IMG/VR virus record: IMGVR_UViG_2585427792_000010
Coordinates: 1 to 4,277 of that record
From: a virus
Taxonomy: Duplodnaviria; Heunggongvirae; Uroviricota; Caudoviricetes
Strand: one strand, 5' to 3'
Length of the DNA: 4,277 bases
Of the stretch, positions 1 to 4,277 are shown piece after piece. A model generated the notes under the pieces. That model ran no database searches and was not told where the DNA came from. It worked only from the letters and a program-made list of their open reading frames with translations. Numbering within the stretch: the first letter of the stretch is position 1; each line of letters starts with the position of its first letter. The translations under genes and the position numbers were made by a program.

Positions 1-25
1 ACCTCGGTTTACAGGAAACGGTAAA
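1..25. repeat. Left inverted repeat / crossover site of the invertible segment, truncated by the window edge
   Basis: Positions 1-25 (acctcggtttacaggaaacggtaaa) are the exact reverse complement of 3055-3079; the first mismatch is at position 26. Position 1-17 corresponds to the inner half-site plus centre of the 26-bp site at 3063-3088. Confidence 0.7.
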
Positions 26-962
26 TCAGGCTTCTGGCGCATTACAGAAAAACCAGAACGGCGCAGATATTCCGGGAAAAGATACCTTCACCAAAAATAT
101 TGGGGCCTGCCGCGCATATAGCGCATGGCTGAATATTGGTGGCGATAGTCAGGTCTGGACAACCGCGCAATTTATTTCGTGGCTGGAGAGTCAGGGAGCA
201 TTTAACCATCCTTACTGGATGTGCAAAGGCTCATGGACTTATGCAAATAATAAGGTCATTACAGATACAGGTTGCGGAAATATTTGTCTTGCAGGTGCTG
301 TGGTGGAAGTTATTGGCACTCGCGGCGCAATGACCATACGCGTTACCACGCCGAGCACGTCCAGCGGTGGCGGAATTACTAACGCTCAATTCACTTATAT
401 TAATCATGGTGATGCTTATGCTCCTGGCTGGCGACGAGACTACAACACGAAAAATCAACAACCTGCATTTGCTTTAGGGCAAACAGGAAGCACTGTCGGA
501 AATGATAAAGCTGTTGGCTGGAACTGGAATAGCGGGGTCTATAACGCAAACATTGGTGGCGCATCGACATTAATCCTCCACTTCAATATGAATACGGGGA
601 GCTGCCCTGCTGTACAGTTCCGCGTGAATTACAGGAACGGCGGTATTTTTTATCGTTCAGCGCGTGATGGTTATGGATTTGAGGCTGACTGGTCAGAGTT
701 TTACACCACGACCCGCAAACCCTCTGCGAGAGATGTTGGTGCATACACGCAGGCAGAATGTAACTCAAGGTTTATTACAGGTATTCGCCTTGGCGGTCTG
801 TCATCTGTTCAGACATGGAATGGCCCCGGCTGGTCTGACAGGTCAGGTTATGTCGTTACGGGTTCAGTTAACGGAAACCGTGATGAATTAATTGATACAA
901 CTCAGGCAAGGCCAATTCAGTATTGCATTAATGGGACGTGGTATAACGCGGGGAGTATTTAA
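3..962 (+). CDS. Start-less alternative tail-fibre C-terminal (receptor-binding) cassette (S'v / Hv'-like); silent in this orientation, expressed only after inversion fuses it to the constant part of the fibre gene
   Basis: My own translation shows the frame of track ORF 219..962 is open from position 3 with no stop. It begins LGLQETVN, identical to residues 391-398 of the minus-strand fibre. It ends ...RPIQYCINGTWYNAGSI, resembling the fibre C-terminus ...RPIQKYINGTWYNVAQV. No convincing SD precedes the Met at 219. Confidence 0.8.
   Translation, partial: LGLQETVNQASGALQKNQNGADIPGKDTFTKNIGACRAYSAWLNIGGDSQVWTTAQFISWLESQGAFNHPYWMCKGSWTYANNKVITDTGCGNICLAGAVVEVIGTRGAMTIRVTTPSTSSGGGITNAQFTYINHGDAYAPGWRRDYNTKNQQPAFALGQTGSTVGNDKAVGWNWNSGVYNANIGGASTLILHFNMNTGSCPAVQFRVNYRNGGIFYRSARDGYGFEADWSEFYTTTRKPSARDVGAYTQAECNSRFITGIRLGGLSSVQTWNGPGWSDRSGYVVTGSVNGNRDELIDTTQARPIQYCINGTWYNAGSI
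950..955 (+). promoter_or_regulatory. Shine-Dalgarno-like GGGGAG for the plus-strand chaperone gene, embedded in the last codons of the alternative fibre cassette
   Basis: GGGGAG at 950-955, 9 nt upstream of the ATG at 965 (12 nt from the ATG at 968). Confidence 0.4.
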
Positions 963-964
963 CG

Positions 965-1498
965 ATGATGCACTTAAAAAACATTACTGCTGGCAACCCT
1001 AAAACAAAAGAGCAATACCAGCTAACAAAGCAATTTAACATCAAATGGCTTTATTCAGATGATGGAAAAAACTGGTATGAGGAACAAAAGAATTTCCAGC
1101 CAGACACTTTGAAAATGGTCTATGACCATAACGGCGTTATTATTTGTATTGAAAAGGATGTTTCAGCAATTAATCCAGAAGGCGCAAGCGTCGTTGAATT
1201 ACCTGATATTACAGCAAATCGCCGGGCTGATATTTCGGGTAAATGGATGTTCAAAGATGGCGTAGTGATAAAGCGAACTTATACCGAGGAAGAACAGAGG
1301 CAGCAGGCAGAGAATGAAAAACAAAGCCTGTTGCAACTTGTCAGGGATAAAACCCAGCTATGGGACTCACAGCTACGGCTGGGCATCATTTCCGACGAGA
1401 ATAAACAAAAATTAACAGAGTGGATGCTCTTTGCGCAGAAAGTCGAATCGACAGACACTTCCAGCCTGCCAGTAACGTTTCCCGAACAACCAGAATGA
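965..1498 (+). CDS. Alternative tail fibre assembly chaperone (U'/Tfa'-like paralog), partner of the silent alternative fibre tip
   Basis: 177-aa [27 protein letters not shown].... Roughly 70% identical by eye to the minus-strand chaperone over the first ~110 aa, then a divergent C-terminal ~60 aa. Starts 2 nt after the stop of the upstream cassette (960-962). GGGGAG at 950-955 is a plausible SD. The homologous start may be the second ATG at 968. Confidence 0.87.
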   Translation: MMHLKNITAGNPKTKEQYQLTKQFNIKWLYSDDGKNWYEEQKNFQPDTLKMVYDHNGVIICIEKDVSAINPEGASVVELPDITANRRADISGKWMFKDGVVIKRTYTEEEQRQQAENEKQSLLQLVRDKTQLWDSQLRLGIISDENKQKLTEWMLFAQKVESTDTSSLPVTFPEQPE

Positions 1499-1501
1499 GA
1501 G

Positions 1502-1529
1502 AAGGCCCGCAATCGGGCCTTAATTTTTA
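1502..1529. terminator. Putative intrinsic terminator hairpin between the convergent chaperone genes
   Basis: Perfect 8-bp GC-rich stem (aaggcccg 1502-1509 and cgggcctt 1514-1521) with a 4-nt loop (caat), followed on the plus strand by aattttta. It lies in the 28-bp gap between the stops of the two convergent genes (1498 and 1527). The U-tract is weaker for the minus-strand transcript. Confidence 0.5.
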
Positions 1530-2054
1530 CTCTGGTTTTTGTGGCCATTCAGGCTTTGCCGTATCCACACGGCTGACCAGAACGCTGTAGCGTTCCCATG
1601 ACTCCAGTCGTGCGCGCTCCTCATCCGTCGCCATATTCAGCCTGACAGCGCGTTCCAGCGGCTGGATGACTGATTCAGCTTCGGAAAGCAATGCGGCCTT
1701 TTGTGATTCGGCTTGTTGTTGCTGTTCGTCTGCCGTATAAATCCGTTTAACTACAGCTCCATCCTTAAACATCCACTTTCCTGAATCATCAGCGCGGCGA
1801 TTGGCTGTAATATCGGGAACCTCAACGACGCTAAAACCTTCAGGGTTAAGCGTGGATGCATCTTTGGTGATGGCGACAATAATATTATTTTCATCGTAAA
1901 CAATCTTTATTGTATCTGGTTGAAAGTTTTTCACTTCCTCATACCAGTTTTTACCGTCTTCGGACCATAACCAGATAACATCAAAATTCTTTGTTAGCTG
2001 ATATTGTTCTTTCGTTTTAGGATTACCAGACTTAATATTTTTTAAATGCTGCAT
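1527..2054 (-). CDS. G: Tail fibre assembly chaperone (P2 gpG / Mu U / lambda Tfa family), partner of the currently expressed fibre tip
   Basis: 175-aa ORF starting [24 protein letters not shown]..., which I recall as matching P2 G. ATG at 2054-2052 lies 3 nt after the fibre stop (2058-2060). An AGGTG Shine-Dalgarno (2061-2065, minus strand) sits 6 nt upstream of the ATG, inside the 3' end of the fibre gene. Stop TAA at 1527-1529. Confidence 0.88.
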
Positions 2055-2057
2055 AAT

Positions 2058-4277
2058 TTACACCTGTGCTACGTTATACCATGTGCCATTGATGTATTTT
2101 TGTATTGGTCTGAAGATGGCTTCATCATCGCCATCTACTTCACCAATGATTCTTAATCCGGTAATTGCGTGTCCGGCTTTTTCATAACGACCACCACGCG
2201 CCATCAATTGAACAACACGTGTGCCAAGTCGGACATCTCTCACATAGCGTGAGTCAAAATTGCCATAATTTCCGGGAATAATTTGCGCACCGCAAAGCCA
2301 GTTGCCATTGTTGTCCATGTACGCCTGACCATCGGTGCCATTGGCTGTCCTTGAATTATTAATCATGTAAAAACCAAACTGGTAGTTACCAAGTCCACCG
2401 ACAAAAAATTTGCGTTCTGCATGGTCTTGTCTTAACAAAGCCTGCGCAGAACTTGTTGATACTGCGTTTCTACCAAAAATGACATTCTGGTTTCGCATAT
2501 CAATCCATGAGGTTGAGCCACTATTAATAGCAAACCTGTTTGCATACACCCAGGCGTTAGTTGTTATATCTCCTGTAACATCCAGACCATGCCCCATAGT
2601 TATGCGGCCAGTTCTGAGATTAAGCGTAAAGGGACGTAGTGGCCCTATATCACCATTTTCCCCCTCATTCTCTCGTGTAGGGATGATATGCAGGCATTCT
2701 TCAGAACGGCGAAAAATGGCACCAAAAGATGAATTAAATATCCTCAGTGCATTGACTGTCGATATTTTTACTTCACTGCTGAAAAGGGCTTTAACAAGAA
2801 CAGACAAAGCACCCCATTTAAGATTCATCAGGTCTTTTGTTGTGGTGCTTTGTTTGCTTCTCCATTTGAAATATTCATTGCCGTTGTCGCCTGTTTCAAA
2901 CCACATGTATGAATCAGTGTCGCTGTCGGCATCATTTTTAAATCCAATCTTTGCCCAGTCAGTATTTCGAATCCAGGCAAGGATTGAGTCGTTTTCAAAA
3001 GTAAGCCCACCGGATAAGGTATCGCCTGTCTTTTGAACGGCGTTACCAGCCCTGTTTACCGTTTCCTGTAAACCGAGGTATTCGATAACGGCGGCAACGG
3101 TCGATTTCGCAAGAATATCCCGCCCGACTTTTGTCAGGGTTGCCAGGCTGGCGACATCATTCCCCGTAAAATACGGAAACCTGTCTGCCGCAGTAGCAAG
3201 CCCGGCCAGCGCCGTCAGGGTGGCATCTTTCGGTTGCTTACCCGCAAGCGCGTTAGTCATGGTGGTCGCAAAATTCGGGTCGTTGCCCAGCGCCGCCGCT
3301 AACTCGTTCAGCGTATTCAGTGCGTCAGGCGACGAGTCTACAAGGGCGGCAATCGCGGCCATCACATAAGCCGTACTTGCGATCTGAGTATTATTAGTAC
3401 CTTTTGGCGCAGTTGGCGTTGTTGGCGTTCCGGTCAGTGCAGGACTATTTAAGGGCGCTTTCTTGTTCGTTTCATCCATTACCGCCTTAACCGCTTTCGA
3501 TGTCGCGGCCAGTGTTTCAGACGTGCTGTTGGTGGCACTACTGAGCTGGACTATCCCTTTTTGTGCCGTCGTGGCGTCCTGAGCGGTATATTTTGCGTTA
3601 GCAAGGTCATACGCGGCCTTTACTGCTTTCGGCGTTGCAGCCTGCGTTTCAGACGTGCTGTTGGTGGCGCTACTGAGCTGGACAAGGCCTTTTCGCGTCG
3701 TGCTGGCATCCTGCGCAGTATATTTACCGTTAGCAAGATCATACGCGGCCTTTACTGCTTTCGGCGTTGCAGCCTGCGTTTCAGACACGCTGTTAGTGGC
3801 GCTACTGAGTTGAACAAAGCCTTTTGCGGTCAGCGAGGCGTCCGGGTGACGTCGTGACTGTTCATGCTCTTTCAGTTTGTCATCCACGTAATCCACTGTG
3901 GCCATCACCATGGTGTTATCCACGGTAAGCGCCACGGTGGCAGTGCTGGATACGGTCAGAATGGTGCGAAATGTTTGTGCACGACCGGACCCTTCGGCAA
4001 CGGCTGGCTTGTAACTTTCGGCAGTATTTCCCACCGCGATTAAATCGCCGTGCTCATCAAATACACCAATTTCCCGGATCCAGAATCCGCCCGTTTCAGG
4101 AGGAATAACCAGCTCCGCAATAATGCGGTTCTGATGTGTTGCGTCCAGGATGACGCGATTAACAGTATGTCGCCACACCTCATGCACCAGACGGGTCTGC
4201 TTACTGTTTGGTGTGGGCAACGTGCCGCCACCGTCGCCCACGGCCATATGAGTCAGGCGGACAGGCTTACCATCTGG
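2058..4277 (-). CDS. H: Phage tail fibre protein, P2 gpH-like; 5' end runs off the window. Constant N-terminal shaft about 3077-4277, currently joined variable receptor-binding C-terminus 2058-3076
   Basis: 729-aa ORF on the track (2058..4247). My translation of 4248-4277 in the same frame (PDGKPVRLTH) has no stop, so the Met at 4247 is internal. From memory, the N-terminal region (MAVGDGGG..., IAELVIPPE..GGFW, ESYKPA.AEGSGR) and the C-terminal end (GNFDSRYV.DVRLGTRVVQLMARGGRYEKAGH.ITGLRIIGEVDGDDEAIFRPIQKYINGTWYNVAQV) match P2 tail fibre H. Contains 44-aa tandem repeats with the QLSSATNSTSET.AATPKAVK motif typical of phage fibres. Stop TAA at 2058-2060. Confidence 0.9.
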   Translation of the reverse strand, partial: PDGKPVRLTHMAVGDGGGTLPTPNSKQTRLVHEVWRHTVNRVILDATHQNRIIAELVIPPETGGFWIREIGVFDEHGDLIAVGNTAESYKPAVAEGSGRAQTFRTILTVSSTATVALTVDNTMVMATVDYVDDKLKEHEQSRRHPDASLTAKGFVQLSSATNSVSETQAATPKAVKAAYDLANGKYTAQDASTTRKGLVQLSSATNSTSETQAATPKAVKAAYDLANAKYTAQDATTAQKGIVQLSSATNSTSETLAATSKAVKAVMDETNKKAPLNSPALTGTPTTPTAPKGTNNTQIASTAYVMAAIAALVDSSPDALNTLNELAAALGNDPNFATTMTNALAGKQPKDATLTALAGLATAADRFPYFTGNDVASLATLTKVGRDILAKSTVAAVIEYLGLQETVNRAGNAVQKTGDTLSGGLTFENDSILAWIRNTDWAKIGFKNDADSDTDSYMWFETGDNGNEYFKWRSKQSTTTKDLMNLKWGALSVLVKALFSSEVKISTVNALRIFNSSFGAIFRRSEECLHIIPTRENEGENGDIGPLRPFTLNLRTGRITMGHGLDVTGDITTNAWVYANRFAINSGSTSWIDMRNQNVIFGRNAVSTSSAQALLRQDHAERKFFVGGLGNYQFGFYMINNSRTANGTDGQAYMDNNGNWLCGAQIIPGNYGNFDSRYVRDVRLGTRVVQLMARGGRYEKAGHAITGLRIIGEVDGDDEAIFRPIQKYINGTWYNVAQV
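2061..2065 (-). promoter_or_regulatory. Shine-Dalgarno (AGGTG) for the minus-strand chaperone gene, embedded in the last codons of the fibre gene (translational coupling)
   Basis: The minus-strand sequence upstream of the ATG at 2054 reads agcacAGGTGtaaattATG, giving a 6-nt spacer. Confidence 0.5.
3055..3079. repeat. Right inverted repeat, inside the fibre coding sequence at the constant/variable junction
   Basis: Exact 25-bp reverse-complement match to window positions 1-25. Encodes LGLQETVN of the fibre protein. Confidence 0.7.
3063..3088. other. Candidate 26-bp serine-invertase crossover site (gix/cix/pix/hix-like): TTCCTGTAAACC-GA-GGTATTCGATAA
   Basis: Imperfect palindrome of two 12-bp half-sites (TTCCTGTAAACC, and TTATCGAATACC on the other strand) around a central GA dinucleotide. 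The left half and centre are the part duplicated at the window start. From memory it closely resembles the Mu gix site; this was not verified by alignment. Confidence 0.6.
3477..3845 (-). repeat. In-frame tandem repeat, 132-bp period (44 aa), about 2.7 copies, in the constant shaft of the fibre gene
   Basis: The motif gtttcagacgtgctgttggtggc recurs at 3514, 3646 and 3778 (with variants), a spacing of exactly 132 bp. The protein shows KGFVQLSSATNSVSETQAATPKAVKAAYDLANGKYTAQDASTTR, then KGLVQLSSATNSTSETQAATPKAVKAAYDLANAKYTAQDATTAQ, then KGIVQLSSATNSTSETLAATSKAVKAV.... Confidence 0.85.

Follow-up and report, generated by a model that had tools for sequence, protein, structure and literature searches.

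The closest described relatives of the locus studied here are the invertible tail-fiber modules of phages Mu, P1, P7, and e14. In Mu, the genes lie in the same order as that found here: Sc, a recombination site, Sv, and U, then U' and S'v on the opposite strand, a second site, and the invertase gene, which reads away from the segment. Pin of e14 and Hin of Salmonella are small serine invertases of the same class, likewise with sites of 26 bp. Hin flips a promoter of flagellin genes, not the coding cassettes of tail fibers, and an alignment of the Fis/enhancer-dependent invertases (Hin, Gin, and Cin) identified as uniquely conserved the basic helix-B residues K47, R48, and K51 and the Fis-contact patch Q151, R154, and L155, in Hin numbering (PMC3798978).

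The window analyzed in this study is a stretch of viral DNA of 4277 nucleotides (positions 1 to 4277 of the IMG/VR record IMGVR_UViG_2585427792_000010). The first-pass annotation, which was made from its letters alone, had interpreted it as part of an invertible switch by analogy with Mu gin, P1 cin, and e14 pin, and the sequence past the left edge of the window supported this interpretation. The window very probably contains nearly the whole of an invertase-flipped tail-fiber module of the Mu G-segment type, residing in a P88-like prophage (P2-type, Xuanwuvirus). The module itself is of an already known kind, namely the G-segment/Gin kind, a host-range switch of the phage Mu type.

Crossover site in the tail-fiber gene S

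The tail-fiber gene S, on the minus strand, contains the 26-mer TTCCTGTAAACCGAGGTATTCGATAA at 3063–3088, which was read directly in the window and was exactly the sequence given in the first-pass annotation. It forms a complete gixL-like site composed of the inner half TTCCTGTAAACC, the center GA, and the outer half GGTATTCGATAA. The site had been described as a palindrome, but the symmetry of its two 12-bp half-sites around GA is imperfect, with 7 of 12 positions matching; Mu gix likewise matches at 7 of 12. Translation of 3104–3042 gave STVAAVIEYLGLQETVNRAGN, in which V-I-E-Y-L-G-L-Q-E is the product of the 26-mer and EYLGLQETVN is encoded by 3083–3054. The translated minus-strand ORF thus agreed with the earlier claim that EYLGLQETVN is partly encoded by the site and that the crossover lies inside a coding sequence. 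The central dinucleotide GA (3075–3076; TC on the coding strand) matches the center of Mu gix and falls within a CTC Leu codon. Staggered cleavage and strand exchange probably occur at this dinucleotide.

Inverted second site at the window start

The first 17 nucleotides of the window (1–17; ACCTCGGTTTACAGGAA) are the exact reverse complement of 3063–3079. This 17-mer occurred at these two positions only in the window and was found in 0 of 200 shuffles, a result far beyond chance that establishes both the site and its inverted counterpart as real. The inverted repeat between 1–25 and 3055–3079 is perfect over 25 nt and continues more weakly out to 49 nt. Positions 1–17 represent a truncated gixR-like second site comprising 3 nt of the outer half, the center TC (4–5), and the inner half GGTTTACAGGAA (6–17). 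It had been noted that the left copy is cut by the window edge, with only the inner half-site and center visible; the cut was confirmed, but 3 nt of the outer half are also present and only 9 nt are lost.

The left flank was read in contigs 100% identical to the window, chiefly L019, and not in the window's own record. An exact 83-nt query taken from a variable region of the window (2430–2512) found no match in genome contigs and six viral-contig loci, the best of which were 94–96% identical. With the 177-aa tail-fiber assembly chaperone of the module, 8 loci were obtained, and the 100% matching contig was reached through the 175-aa chaperone, the rarer of the two. L019 was identical to the window over all 4277 bases and extends leftward, and L022, L024, and L025 were 100% identical over the parts of the window that they cover. 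The 9 nt of the left site beyond the window, directly left of position 1, are TTATCTAAA. The complete left site across the window start, as read directly in L019 and P88, is TTATCTAAAACCTCGGTTTACAGGAA; in L019 it divides into TTATCTAAAACC-TC-GGTTTACAGGAA, or TTCCTGTAAACC-GA-GGTTTTAGATAA when read as the reverse complement. A full left site was likewise read in E. coli E110019. The locus therefore has two inverted 26-bp sites with imperfectly symmetric 12-bp half-sites and an identical 2-bp center, the second of which spans the window start as anticipated. Scans for a third site with the core AAACC-NN-GGTWT gave just these two sites, by which a Min-type or shufflon-type multi-site system was ruled out.

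Invertible segment and its genes

The segment between the two central dinucleotides (5–3075) is 3071 bp long and is the equivalent of the Mu G segment. At its left end, on the plus strand, lies S'v (3–962), a silent cassette of 319 codons for the alternative C-terminal part of the tail fiber, with a gp37_C domain and no start codon of its own; it opens with LGLQETVN in frame with the site, and the frame is open from 3 to 962. U' (965–1498, plus strand) encodes the 177-aa tail-fiber assembly chaperone paired with S'v (Caudo_TAP, E = 4.8e-36). On the minus strand, Sv (2058–3074; 339 codons; Gp34_trimer) is the variable C-terminal part of the tail fiber that is currently expressed, and U (1527–2054) encodes its paired chaperone of 175 aa (Caudo_TAP, E = 3e-37). 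U is expressed in the present orientation of the segment. The two Caudo_TAP genes lie tail to tail, and the GC-rich hairpin between them (1502–1521), which has an 8-bp stem with 6 G-C pairs and is followed by AATTTTTACT, is likely a terminator. None of the four ORFs in the segment is interrupted. A second inverted repeat, 909–948 versus 2072–2111, corresponds to the C-terminal motif INGTWYN common to both cassettes.

Outside the segment, Sc (3077–4277, minus strand), the constant N-terminal part of S, carries Phage_tail_fib and three Phage_fiber_2 repeats and is truncated by the right window edge. The true start of S lies 75 nt past this edge, and S is 764 aa long in L019 and P88. Because the crossover falls in codon 426 of S and LGLQETVN is encoded in frame by both arms, the 425-aa constant part can be joined to either of two C-terminal cassettes, Sv with U downstream or S'v with U' downstream, so that each cassette comes with its own chaperone. 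The gene calls matched the predicted fusions: the 764-aa form was found in L019, and in another contig, L020, S'v is fused to the constant part in a gene of 744 aa (425 + 319).

Invertase gene and its enhancer

By analogy with known systems, the first-pass annotation had predicted a serine-invertase gene of about 190 aa with a Fis-dependent enhancer immediately left of the window, next to the S'v-like cassette, and had proposed a search for a Hin/Gin-family ORF within 1 kb. Such a gene was found at this place, and neither of the two outcomes that would have spoken against the prediction, the lack of a recombinase within 1–2 kb and the lack of a second full site, was observed. In L019, a spacer of 63 nt, which contains the ribosome-binding site GGGAG, separates the full left site from an ORF of 195 aa that starts with GTG. 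This ORF is located 64–651 nt left of position 1, beyond the site adjoining S'v, and is transcribed away from the segment. Its product contains a Resolvase catalytic domain at residues 3–135 (E = 1.3e-50) with the nucleophilic serine, Ser9, and a C-terminal helix-turn-helix, HTH_7, at 138–181 (E = 9.2e-14). The 195-aa Resolvase/HTH_7 gene was also present past the left site in L022, L024, L025, and P88. A Resolvase/HTH_7 gene adjoined the cassette in 17 of 18 related loci, and the contig of the 18th stops inside the repeat.

The invertase matched the solved Gin structures 4m6f and 3uj3 at E = 1e-100 and was 81% and 72% identical to Gin and Cin, respectively, with the motif YVRVS9T invariant among the three. 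As counted by eye from the alignment, the first 130 residues differ from those of Mu Gin at 3 positions. The DNA similarity to the Mu gene stops at about codon 130, and the C-terminal DNA-binding domain is not Gin-like: it is about 54% identical to that of Gin, and its recognition helix is Hin-like. The recognition-helix region, GIGTSTIYRY, is closest to GIGVSTLYRY of Hin (52.5 bits versus 1hcr and 48.7 bits versus Gin). On the strength of the known cross-reactivity of the family, we assume that the enzyme is specific for these gix-like sites. A crude promoter scan upstream of the gene found no sigma-70 consensus promoter; in Mu, the gin promoter is said to overlap gixR.

Coding nt 1–108 of the invertase gene are identical to Mu gin, including all 72 of 72 positions in nt 19–90. 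Two 15-mers conforming to the Fis consensus lie at coding nt 23–37 and 71–85, with their centers 48 bp apart, and a spacing of 48 bp between the Fis sites is the rule for the Hin, Gin, and Cin enhancers. Their offsets are the same as those in the annotated enhancer of P1, which occupies cin coding nt 19–90. The center of the nearer 15-mer is about 97 bp from the center of the left site, and the distance from enhancer to site in hin is about 100 bp (PMC3798978). All six residues uniquely conserved among the Fis/enhancer-dependent invertases are present as K46, R47, K50, Q150, R153, and L154. As judged from these sequence features, a cis-acting enhancer with two candidate Fis sites lies near the 5′ end of the invertase gene, in line with the prediction of an enhancer inside the gene. 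Inversion by members of this class depends on Fis, negative supercoiling, and the catalytic serine, and here too it is presumably Fis-dependent.

Both orientations of the segment and the proposed switch

L019 and L020, which come from different assemblies, are identical over 12.5 kb save that the 3071-bp segment between the central dinucleotides is inverted, with 0 mismatches in the segment and 0 in the 4478 nt of each flank. That the two differ in orientation only implies a very recent inversion. Among complete E. coli genomes, the Sc-Sv junction was found in 359 and the Sc-S'v junction, whose query sequence was assembled in silico, in 126. The segment thus occurs in nature in either orientation.

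These observations are consistent with a switch operating as follows. Dimers of the small serine invertase would occupy the two inverted 26-bp sites and, so bound, would meet on the enhancer with its two Fis sites in the first 90 nt of the gene. The resulting active tetramer would cleave each site at its central dinucleotide; after rotation of one subunit pair by 180 degrees, the ends would be rejoined with the 3071-bp segment flipped. The fibers produced in the two states would be 764 aa and 744 aa long and would differ in their receptor-binding tips. Because the tips differ, the two orientations would be expected, by analogy with Mu and P1, to give the phage different host ranges. The switch is probably active.

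The make-up of the module may also bear on its history. Cassettes nearly identical to Sv/U/U'/S'v are carried by elements of the P2, Mu, and P1/P7 types and by other prophages borne on plasmids. The invertase might be a natural domain chimera, with essentially the catalytic domain and enhancer of Gin and with a DNA-binding domain whose recognition helix is Hin-like, that would nonetheless act on nearly pure gix sites. The segment between the sites might itself be a unit of horizontal exchange, its host-range cassettes being moved between different co-resident prophages, across unrelated phage families, by invertase-mediated or otherwise site-directed recombination. We regard this scenario as a rather unlikely one.

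An inactive switch was considered in comparison with decayed cryptic prophages, in which the sites and the invertase gene would remain as a fossil with the orientation frozen. The S gene of the homologous prophage in E. coli E110019 is frameshifted, stfE of e14 is a pseudogene, and the promoter scan for the invertase gene gave no consensus match, all of which would suit such decay. This possibility is nevertheless very improbable: the invertase ORF is intact and lies in a 681-nt stretch 100% identical to that of P88, a phage described as chemically inducible and lytic (PMC6456863); its catalytic and Fis-contact residues are all conserved; the four ORFs of the segment are open; and the very recent inversion separating the L019 and L020 prophages speaks against a frozen orientation.

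Even less probable is that the inversions between genomes arose by RecA-dependent homologous recombination over the 25–49-nt inverted repeat instead of by the invertase. The natural exchange cannot be placed more narrowly than the 25-nt block identical in both sites, and within it the two routes are inseparable by sequence alone. However, a perfectly identical stretch of 25 nt is barely long enough for exchange by RecA, and the repeat falls exactly on a gix-type site, next to which lies an invertase gene that is intact and whose enhancer is conserved. In Mu and P1, according to their annotations, inversion in this same arrangement has been proven to be the work of the invertase. That the repeat merely reflects common ancestry of the N-terminal ends of the cassettes (both LGLQETVN), which are homologous at their C-terminal INGTWYN ends as well, can be practically dismissed, because the nucleotide match ends exactly at the site edge and on inversion the outer half-sites remain attached to their flanks, a pattern that coding homology alone would not give and that the comparison of L019 with L020 contradicts.

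An invertase-driven switch at this locus matters chiefly for annotation. The 5′ end of S'v (3–218) and the recombination sites are easily missed, and P88 and RefSeq annotate only a 247-aa or 219-aa 'tail fiber protein' at S'v. The S gene is better described as having two alternative C-termini. Prophages with tail-fiber genes of unlike length (764 versus 744 aa) can be one element in two states, and the switch accounts for the frequent breaks of draft assemblies at this locus. With regard to the mechanism of serine invertases, the module adds no new knowledge.

Comparison with known systems

The proposed alignment of the site covered gix, cix, and pix, and Hin was compared through its protein domain only. 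The inner half-sites and GA center of Mu gix are identical to those here; of the 26 positions, 1 distinguishes the left site from Mu gixR, and 2 distinguish 3063–3088 from the gix site in Mu S. The Mu G segment and the present segment are both about 3 kb long. On the other hand, the Mu module lies at the right end of the genome near com and mom, whereas the present one lies inside a P2-type prophage, flanked by the baseplate genes gpV, W, J, and I on one side and by gpU and the tape-measure gene on the other. Mu Sc has about 170 aa, whereas Sc here is a long P2 H-like shaft of 425 aa.

The P1 cix sites are also 26 bp long and share the AAACC-NN-GGT core, with the center AA/TT in place of GA/TC; the outer half of P1 cixR differs from that of 3063–3088 at 1 of 12 positions. 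In P1, cin reads toward the segment and cixL overlaps its 3′ end, unlike the Mu-like arrangement found here. With its sites placed further upstream in S, the P1 segment reaches 4.2 kb and is longer than the present one. The Sv/U/U'/S'v cassettes of P1 and P7 are homologs of those here, and over most of the segment the identity was 96.2% with P7 and 90.7% with P1. The e14 pix sites, as read in MG1655, have the core AAACC-NN-GGTTT or CGTTT in common with the present sites, with AA centers, and the segment of e14, a decayed prophage, is shorter.

P88 (KP063541, Xuanwuvirus) has the same flanking genes and was 96.3% identical to the window without gaps. Its 681-nt site-plus-invertase region is 100% identical to that of L019, and the gene is annotated as 'DNA invertase'. 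The 157 substitutions between P88 and the window are clustered in 1291–2652, which takes in the end of U', the whole of U, and the tip of Sv, and in this interval the window is nearer to the C segment of P7 than to P88.

Crossover sites and coding layout

The 26-bp site at 3063-3088 was read directly as TTCCTGTAAACC-GA-GGTATTCGATAA, in exact agreement with the first-pass annotation. Minus-strand translation across it gave ...AAVIEYLGLQETVNRAGN...; therefore, the site is within the coding sequence, as had been proposed, and its central dinucleotide is part of the EYLGLQ Leu codon. The site had also been called palindromic, but the half-sites are symmetric at only 7 of 12 positions, the same as in Mu gix, and the palindrome is partial. 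Positions 1-17 were the exact reverse complement of 3063-3079; this 17-mer occurred nowhere else in the window and in none of 200 shuffles. The inverted repeat was perfect for 25 nt (1-25 versus 3055-3079), with weaker similarity out to 49 nt. The plus-strand frame from position 3, starting LGLQETVNQASG..., was open through 962, and therefore both arms hold the same reading frame.

ORF and domain analysis revealed four coding units. The tail-fibre gene S, on the minus strand, begins past 4277 and ends at 2058; it contains Phage_tail_fib, three Phage_fiber_2 repeats, and Gp34_trimer, and is followed by the gene for chaperone U (175 aa, 2054-1527, Caudo_TAP). Convergent with these on the plus strand are the alternative C-terminal cassette S'v, an open frame that lacks a start codon (3-962, gp37_C), and chaperone U' (177 aa, 965-1498, Caudo_TAP). 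The Mu G segment has this same gene order, Sc-Sv-U / U'-S'v, in which Sc and Sv are the constant and variable parts of S, and the segments of Mu, D108, SfMu, P1, P7, and D6 each showed 90-96% nucleotide identity to the window across about 3 kb. The chaperone genes are separated by 28 nt, and a GC-rich hairpin there (1502-1521; AAGGCCCGCAATCGGGCCTT, then a T-run) is probably a terminator for either expressed orientation.

Mechanical ORF calls mislead at two places. In Escherichia phage P88 (KP063541), the annotation of a 247-aa "tail fiber protein" (219-962) begins at an ATG inside the S'v cassette, although the cassette itself opens at 3, and a 729-aa ORF from 4247 starts at an internal Met of the 764-aa S gene, whose true start is 75 nt past the right window edge. 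Within Sc, a 132-bp unit is repeated three times in tandem (3484-3879, 75-83% identical), encoding 44-aa Phage_fiber_2 repeats (…QLSSATNSTSETQAATPKAVKAAYDLA…). Their copy number appears to vary among related prophages, because the S genes of these span 661-792 aa; two public contigs, L024 and L025, end inside the array, at 3636 and 3594. A second inverted repeat (909-948 versus 2072-2111; 40 nt, 78%), where S'v and Sv end (3′), reflects a common C-terminal peptide (…I(Q/N)…INGTWYN…) just ahead of each chaperone gene and is not a recombination site.

Invertase gene and second site to the left of the window

A look-up of the 175-aa chaperone retrieved a 100.6-kb contig (L019; GCA_031722595.1, ABMRZV010000017.1) identical to the window at all 4277 bases; three others (L022, L024, and L025) were 100% identical over 3399-3636 bases. 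Read leftwards in L019, the nine bases cut off at the window start are TTATCTAAA, which complete the left site as TTATCTAAAACC-TC-GGTTTACAGGAA. Beyond a 63-nt spacer ending in GGGAGATTCAGC lies a 195-aa ORF with a GTG start, directed away from the segment (L019 8118-8705, 64-651 nt left of position 1). The same arrangement was present in P88 (96.3% identical to the window, ungapped) and E. coli E110019 (94.9%), in which the annotations read "DNA invertase" and "recombinase family protein", respectively; the 681-nt site-plus-invertase stretch was 100% identical between L019 and P88. The leftward extension in L019 thus recovered both the truncated site and the serine-invertase gene of about 190 aa that had been predicted.

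The protein contains Resolvase and HTH_7 domains, both above Pfam cut-offs, matched solved Gin structures at E = 1e-100, and was 81% and 72% identical to Mu Gin and P1 Cin, with which it shares an invariant catalytic YVRVS9T motif. Among aligned invertases that depend on Fis and an enhancer (Hin, Gin, and Cin), unique conservation is reported for Hin K47, R48, K51, Q151, R154, and L155 (PMC3798978), and all of these residues have counterparts here. The 91% DNA identity to Mu gin ends abruptly at about codon 130; the C-terminal domain scored slightly higher against Hin than against Gin, and the recognition helix is Hin-like (GIGTSTIYRY). The invertase is a domain mosaic, Gin-like over its first ~130 codons, with a Hin-like recognition helix in its DNA-binding domain.

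The enhancer expected in the gene is likewise supported at the sequence level. Over coding nt 19-90, where the Cin enhancer is annotated in P1, the gene was identical to Mu gin at 72/72 positions, within an identity spanning nt 1-108. The invertase gene, Mu, and P1 all have Fis-consensus 15-mers at nt 23-37 and 71-85, their centres separated by the canonical 48 bp. The nearer 15-mer and the left-site centre are ~97 bp apart, and the hin enhancer is ~100 bp from hixL (PMC3798978).

Evidence for inversion

L020, from a separate assembly (GCA_049564215.1), matched L019 without a mismatch through the 3071-bp segment (5..3075) and for 4478 nt on each side of it; the sole difference was the opposite orientation of the segment. 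The outer half-sites remained with the flanks. The reading frames predict fusions of 425 + 319 and 425 + 339 aa, equal to the S genes called in L020 (744 aa) and L019 (764 aa). With a 300-nt probe, the Sc-Sv junction was covered at least 80% in 359 complete E. coli genomes, and the Sc-S'v junction, assembled in silico, was covered in 126. The exchange point is resolvable only to the 25-nt block common to both sites; by analogy with the family, exchange would occur at the central dinucleotide. Site scanning detected no further crossover site in the window or in 12.5 kb of L019, and the element is therefore a simple two-site switch.

RecA-mediated exchange across the 25 nt could also invert the segment, and sequence alone does not separate it from the invertase route, but it is not needed as an explanation. 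The switch is unlikely to be a frozen fossil, because its ORFs are intact, the inducible phage P88 has an identical invertase region, and the L019 and L020 prophages differ in nothing but orientation. Simple coding homology does not account for the retention of outer half-sites by the flanks.

Possible cassette exchange and assembly breaks

P88 differs from the window at 157 positions, nearly all of them within 1291-2652, an interval that takes in the end (3′) of U', the whole of U, and the distal Sv tip; only two lie in 1-1176. This clustering suggests en bloc replacement of the receptor-binding tip together with its chaperone. The P7 C segment was 96.2% identical to 39-3028. At least three phage backbones that are unrelated to one another carry the invertible cassette, 95-98% identical over matched parts of 1-3095: a Mu-like one, beside com and mom (L005, L008, L009, and L017); a P88/P2-like one (L003, L004, and L019); and a plasmid-borne prophage (L018 and L021), with a shorter, 184-aa invertase in both copies and an IncFII RepA gene in L018.

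Look-ups with the two chaperones retrieved 18 related loci, and in 17 of them a Resolvase/HTH_7 gene (184-199 aa) adjoined the cassette. In the exception, RTJF01000076.1 (L026), the contig stops within the inverted repeat, at window 27. Breaks at the switch are common in draft assemblies, and the longest contig was just 2-5 kb in 14 of 34 index blocks with the 175-aa chaperone. Because the window begins within a site, its start may be another such break.

Comparison with known invertible segments

Sites were aligned with the inner half first, followed by the centre and outer half. The site in S (TTCCTGTAAACC, GA, GGTATTCGATAA) and the invertase-side site (TTCCTGTAAACC, GA, GGTTTTAGATAA) share inner half and centre with both Mu gix sites (TTCCTGTAAACC, GA, GGTTTTGGATAA) and differ from them in the outer half. 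P1 cixR (TTCTCTTAAACC, AA, GGTATTGGATAA) and cixL (TTCTCTTAAACC, AA, GGTTTAGGATTG) and the two e14 pix sites (TTCTCCCAAACC, AA, GGTTTTCGAGAG; TTCTCCCAAACC, AA, CGTTTATGAAAA) have the centre AA instead of GA. Agreement was closest with gix, and the sites are therefore gix-type. These almost pure gix sites go with a mosaic invertase whose recognition helix resembles that of Hin instead.

Overall, the site observation was confirmed, and the first-pass prediction was supported wherever it could be tested. The element belongs to a class of invertible segments (Gin/Cin/Pin/Hin) that has long been known; its invertase gene was already annotated in P88, and it is ordinary, with mechanistic parts nearly identical to those of Mu.
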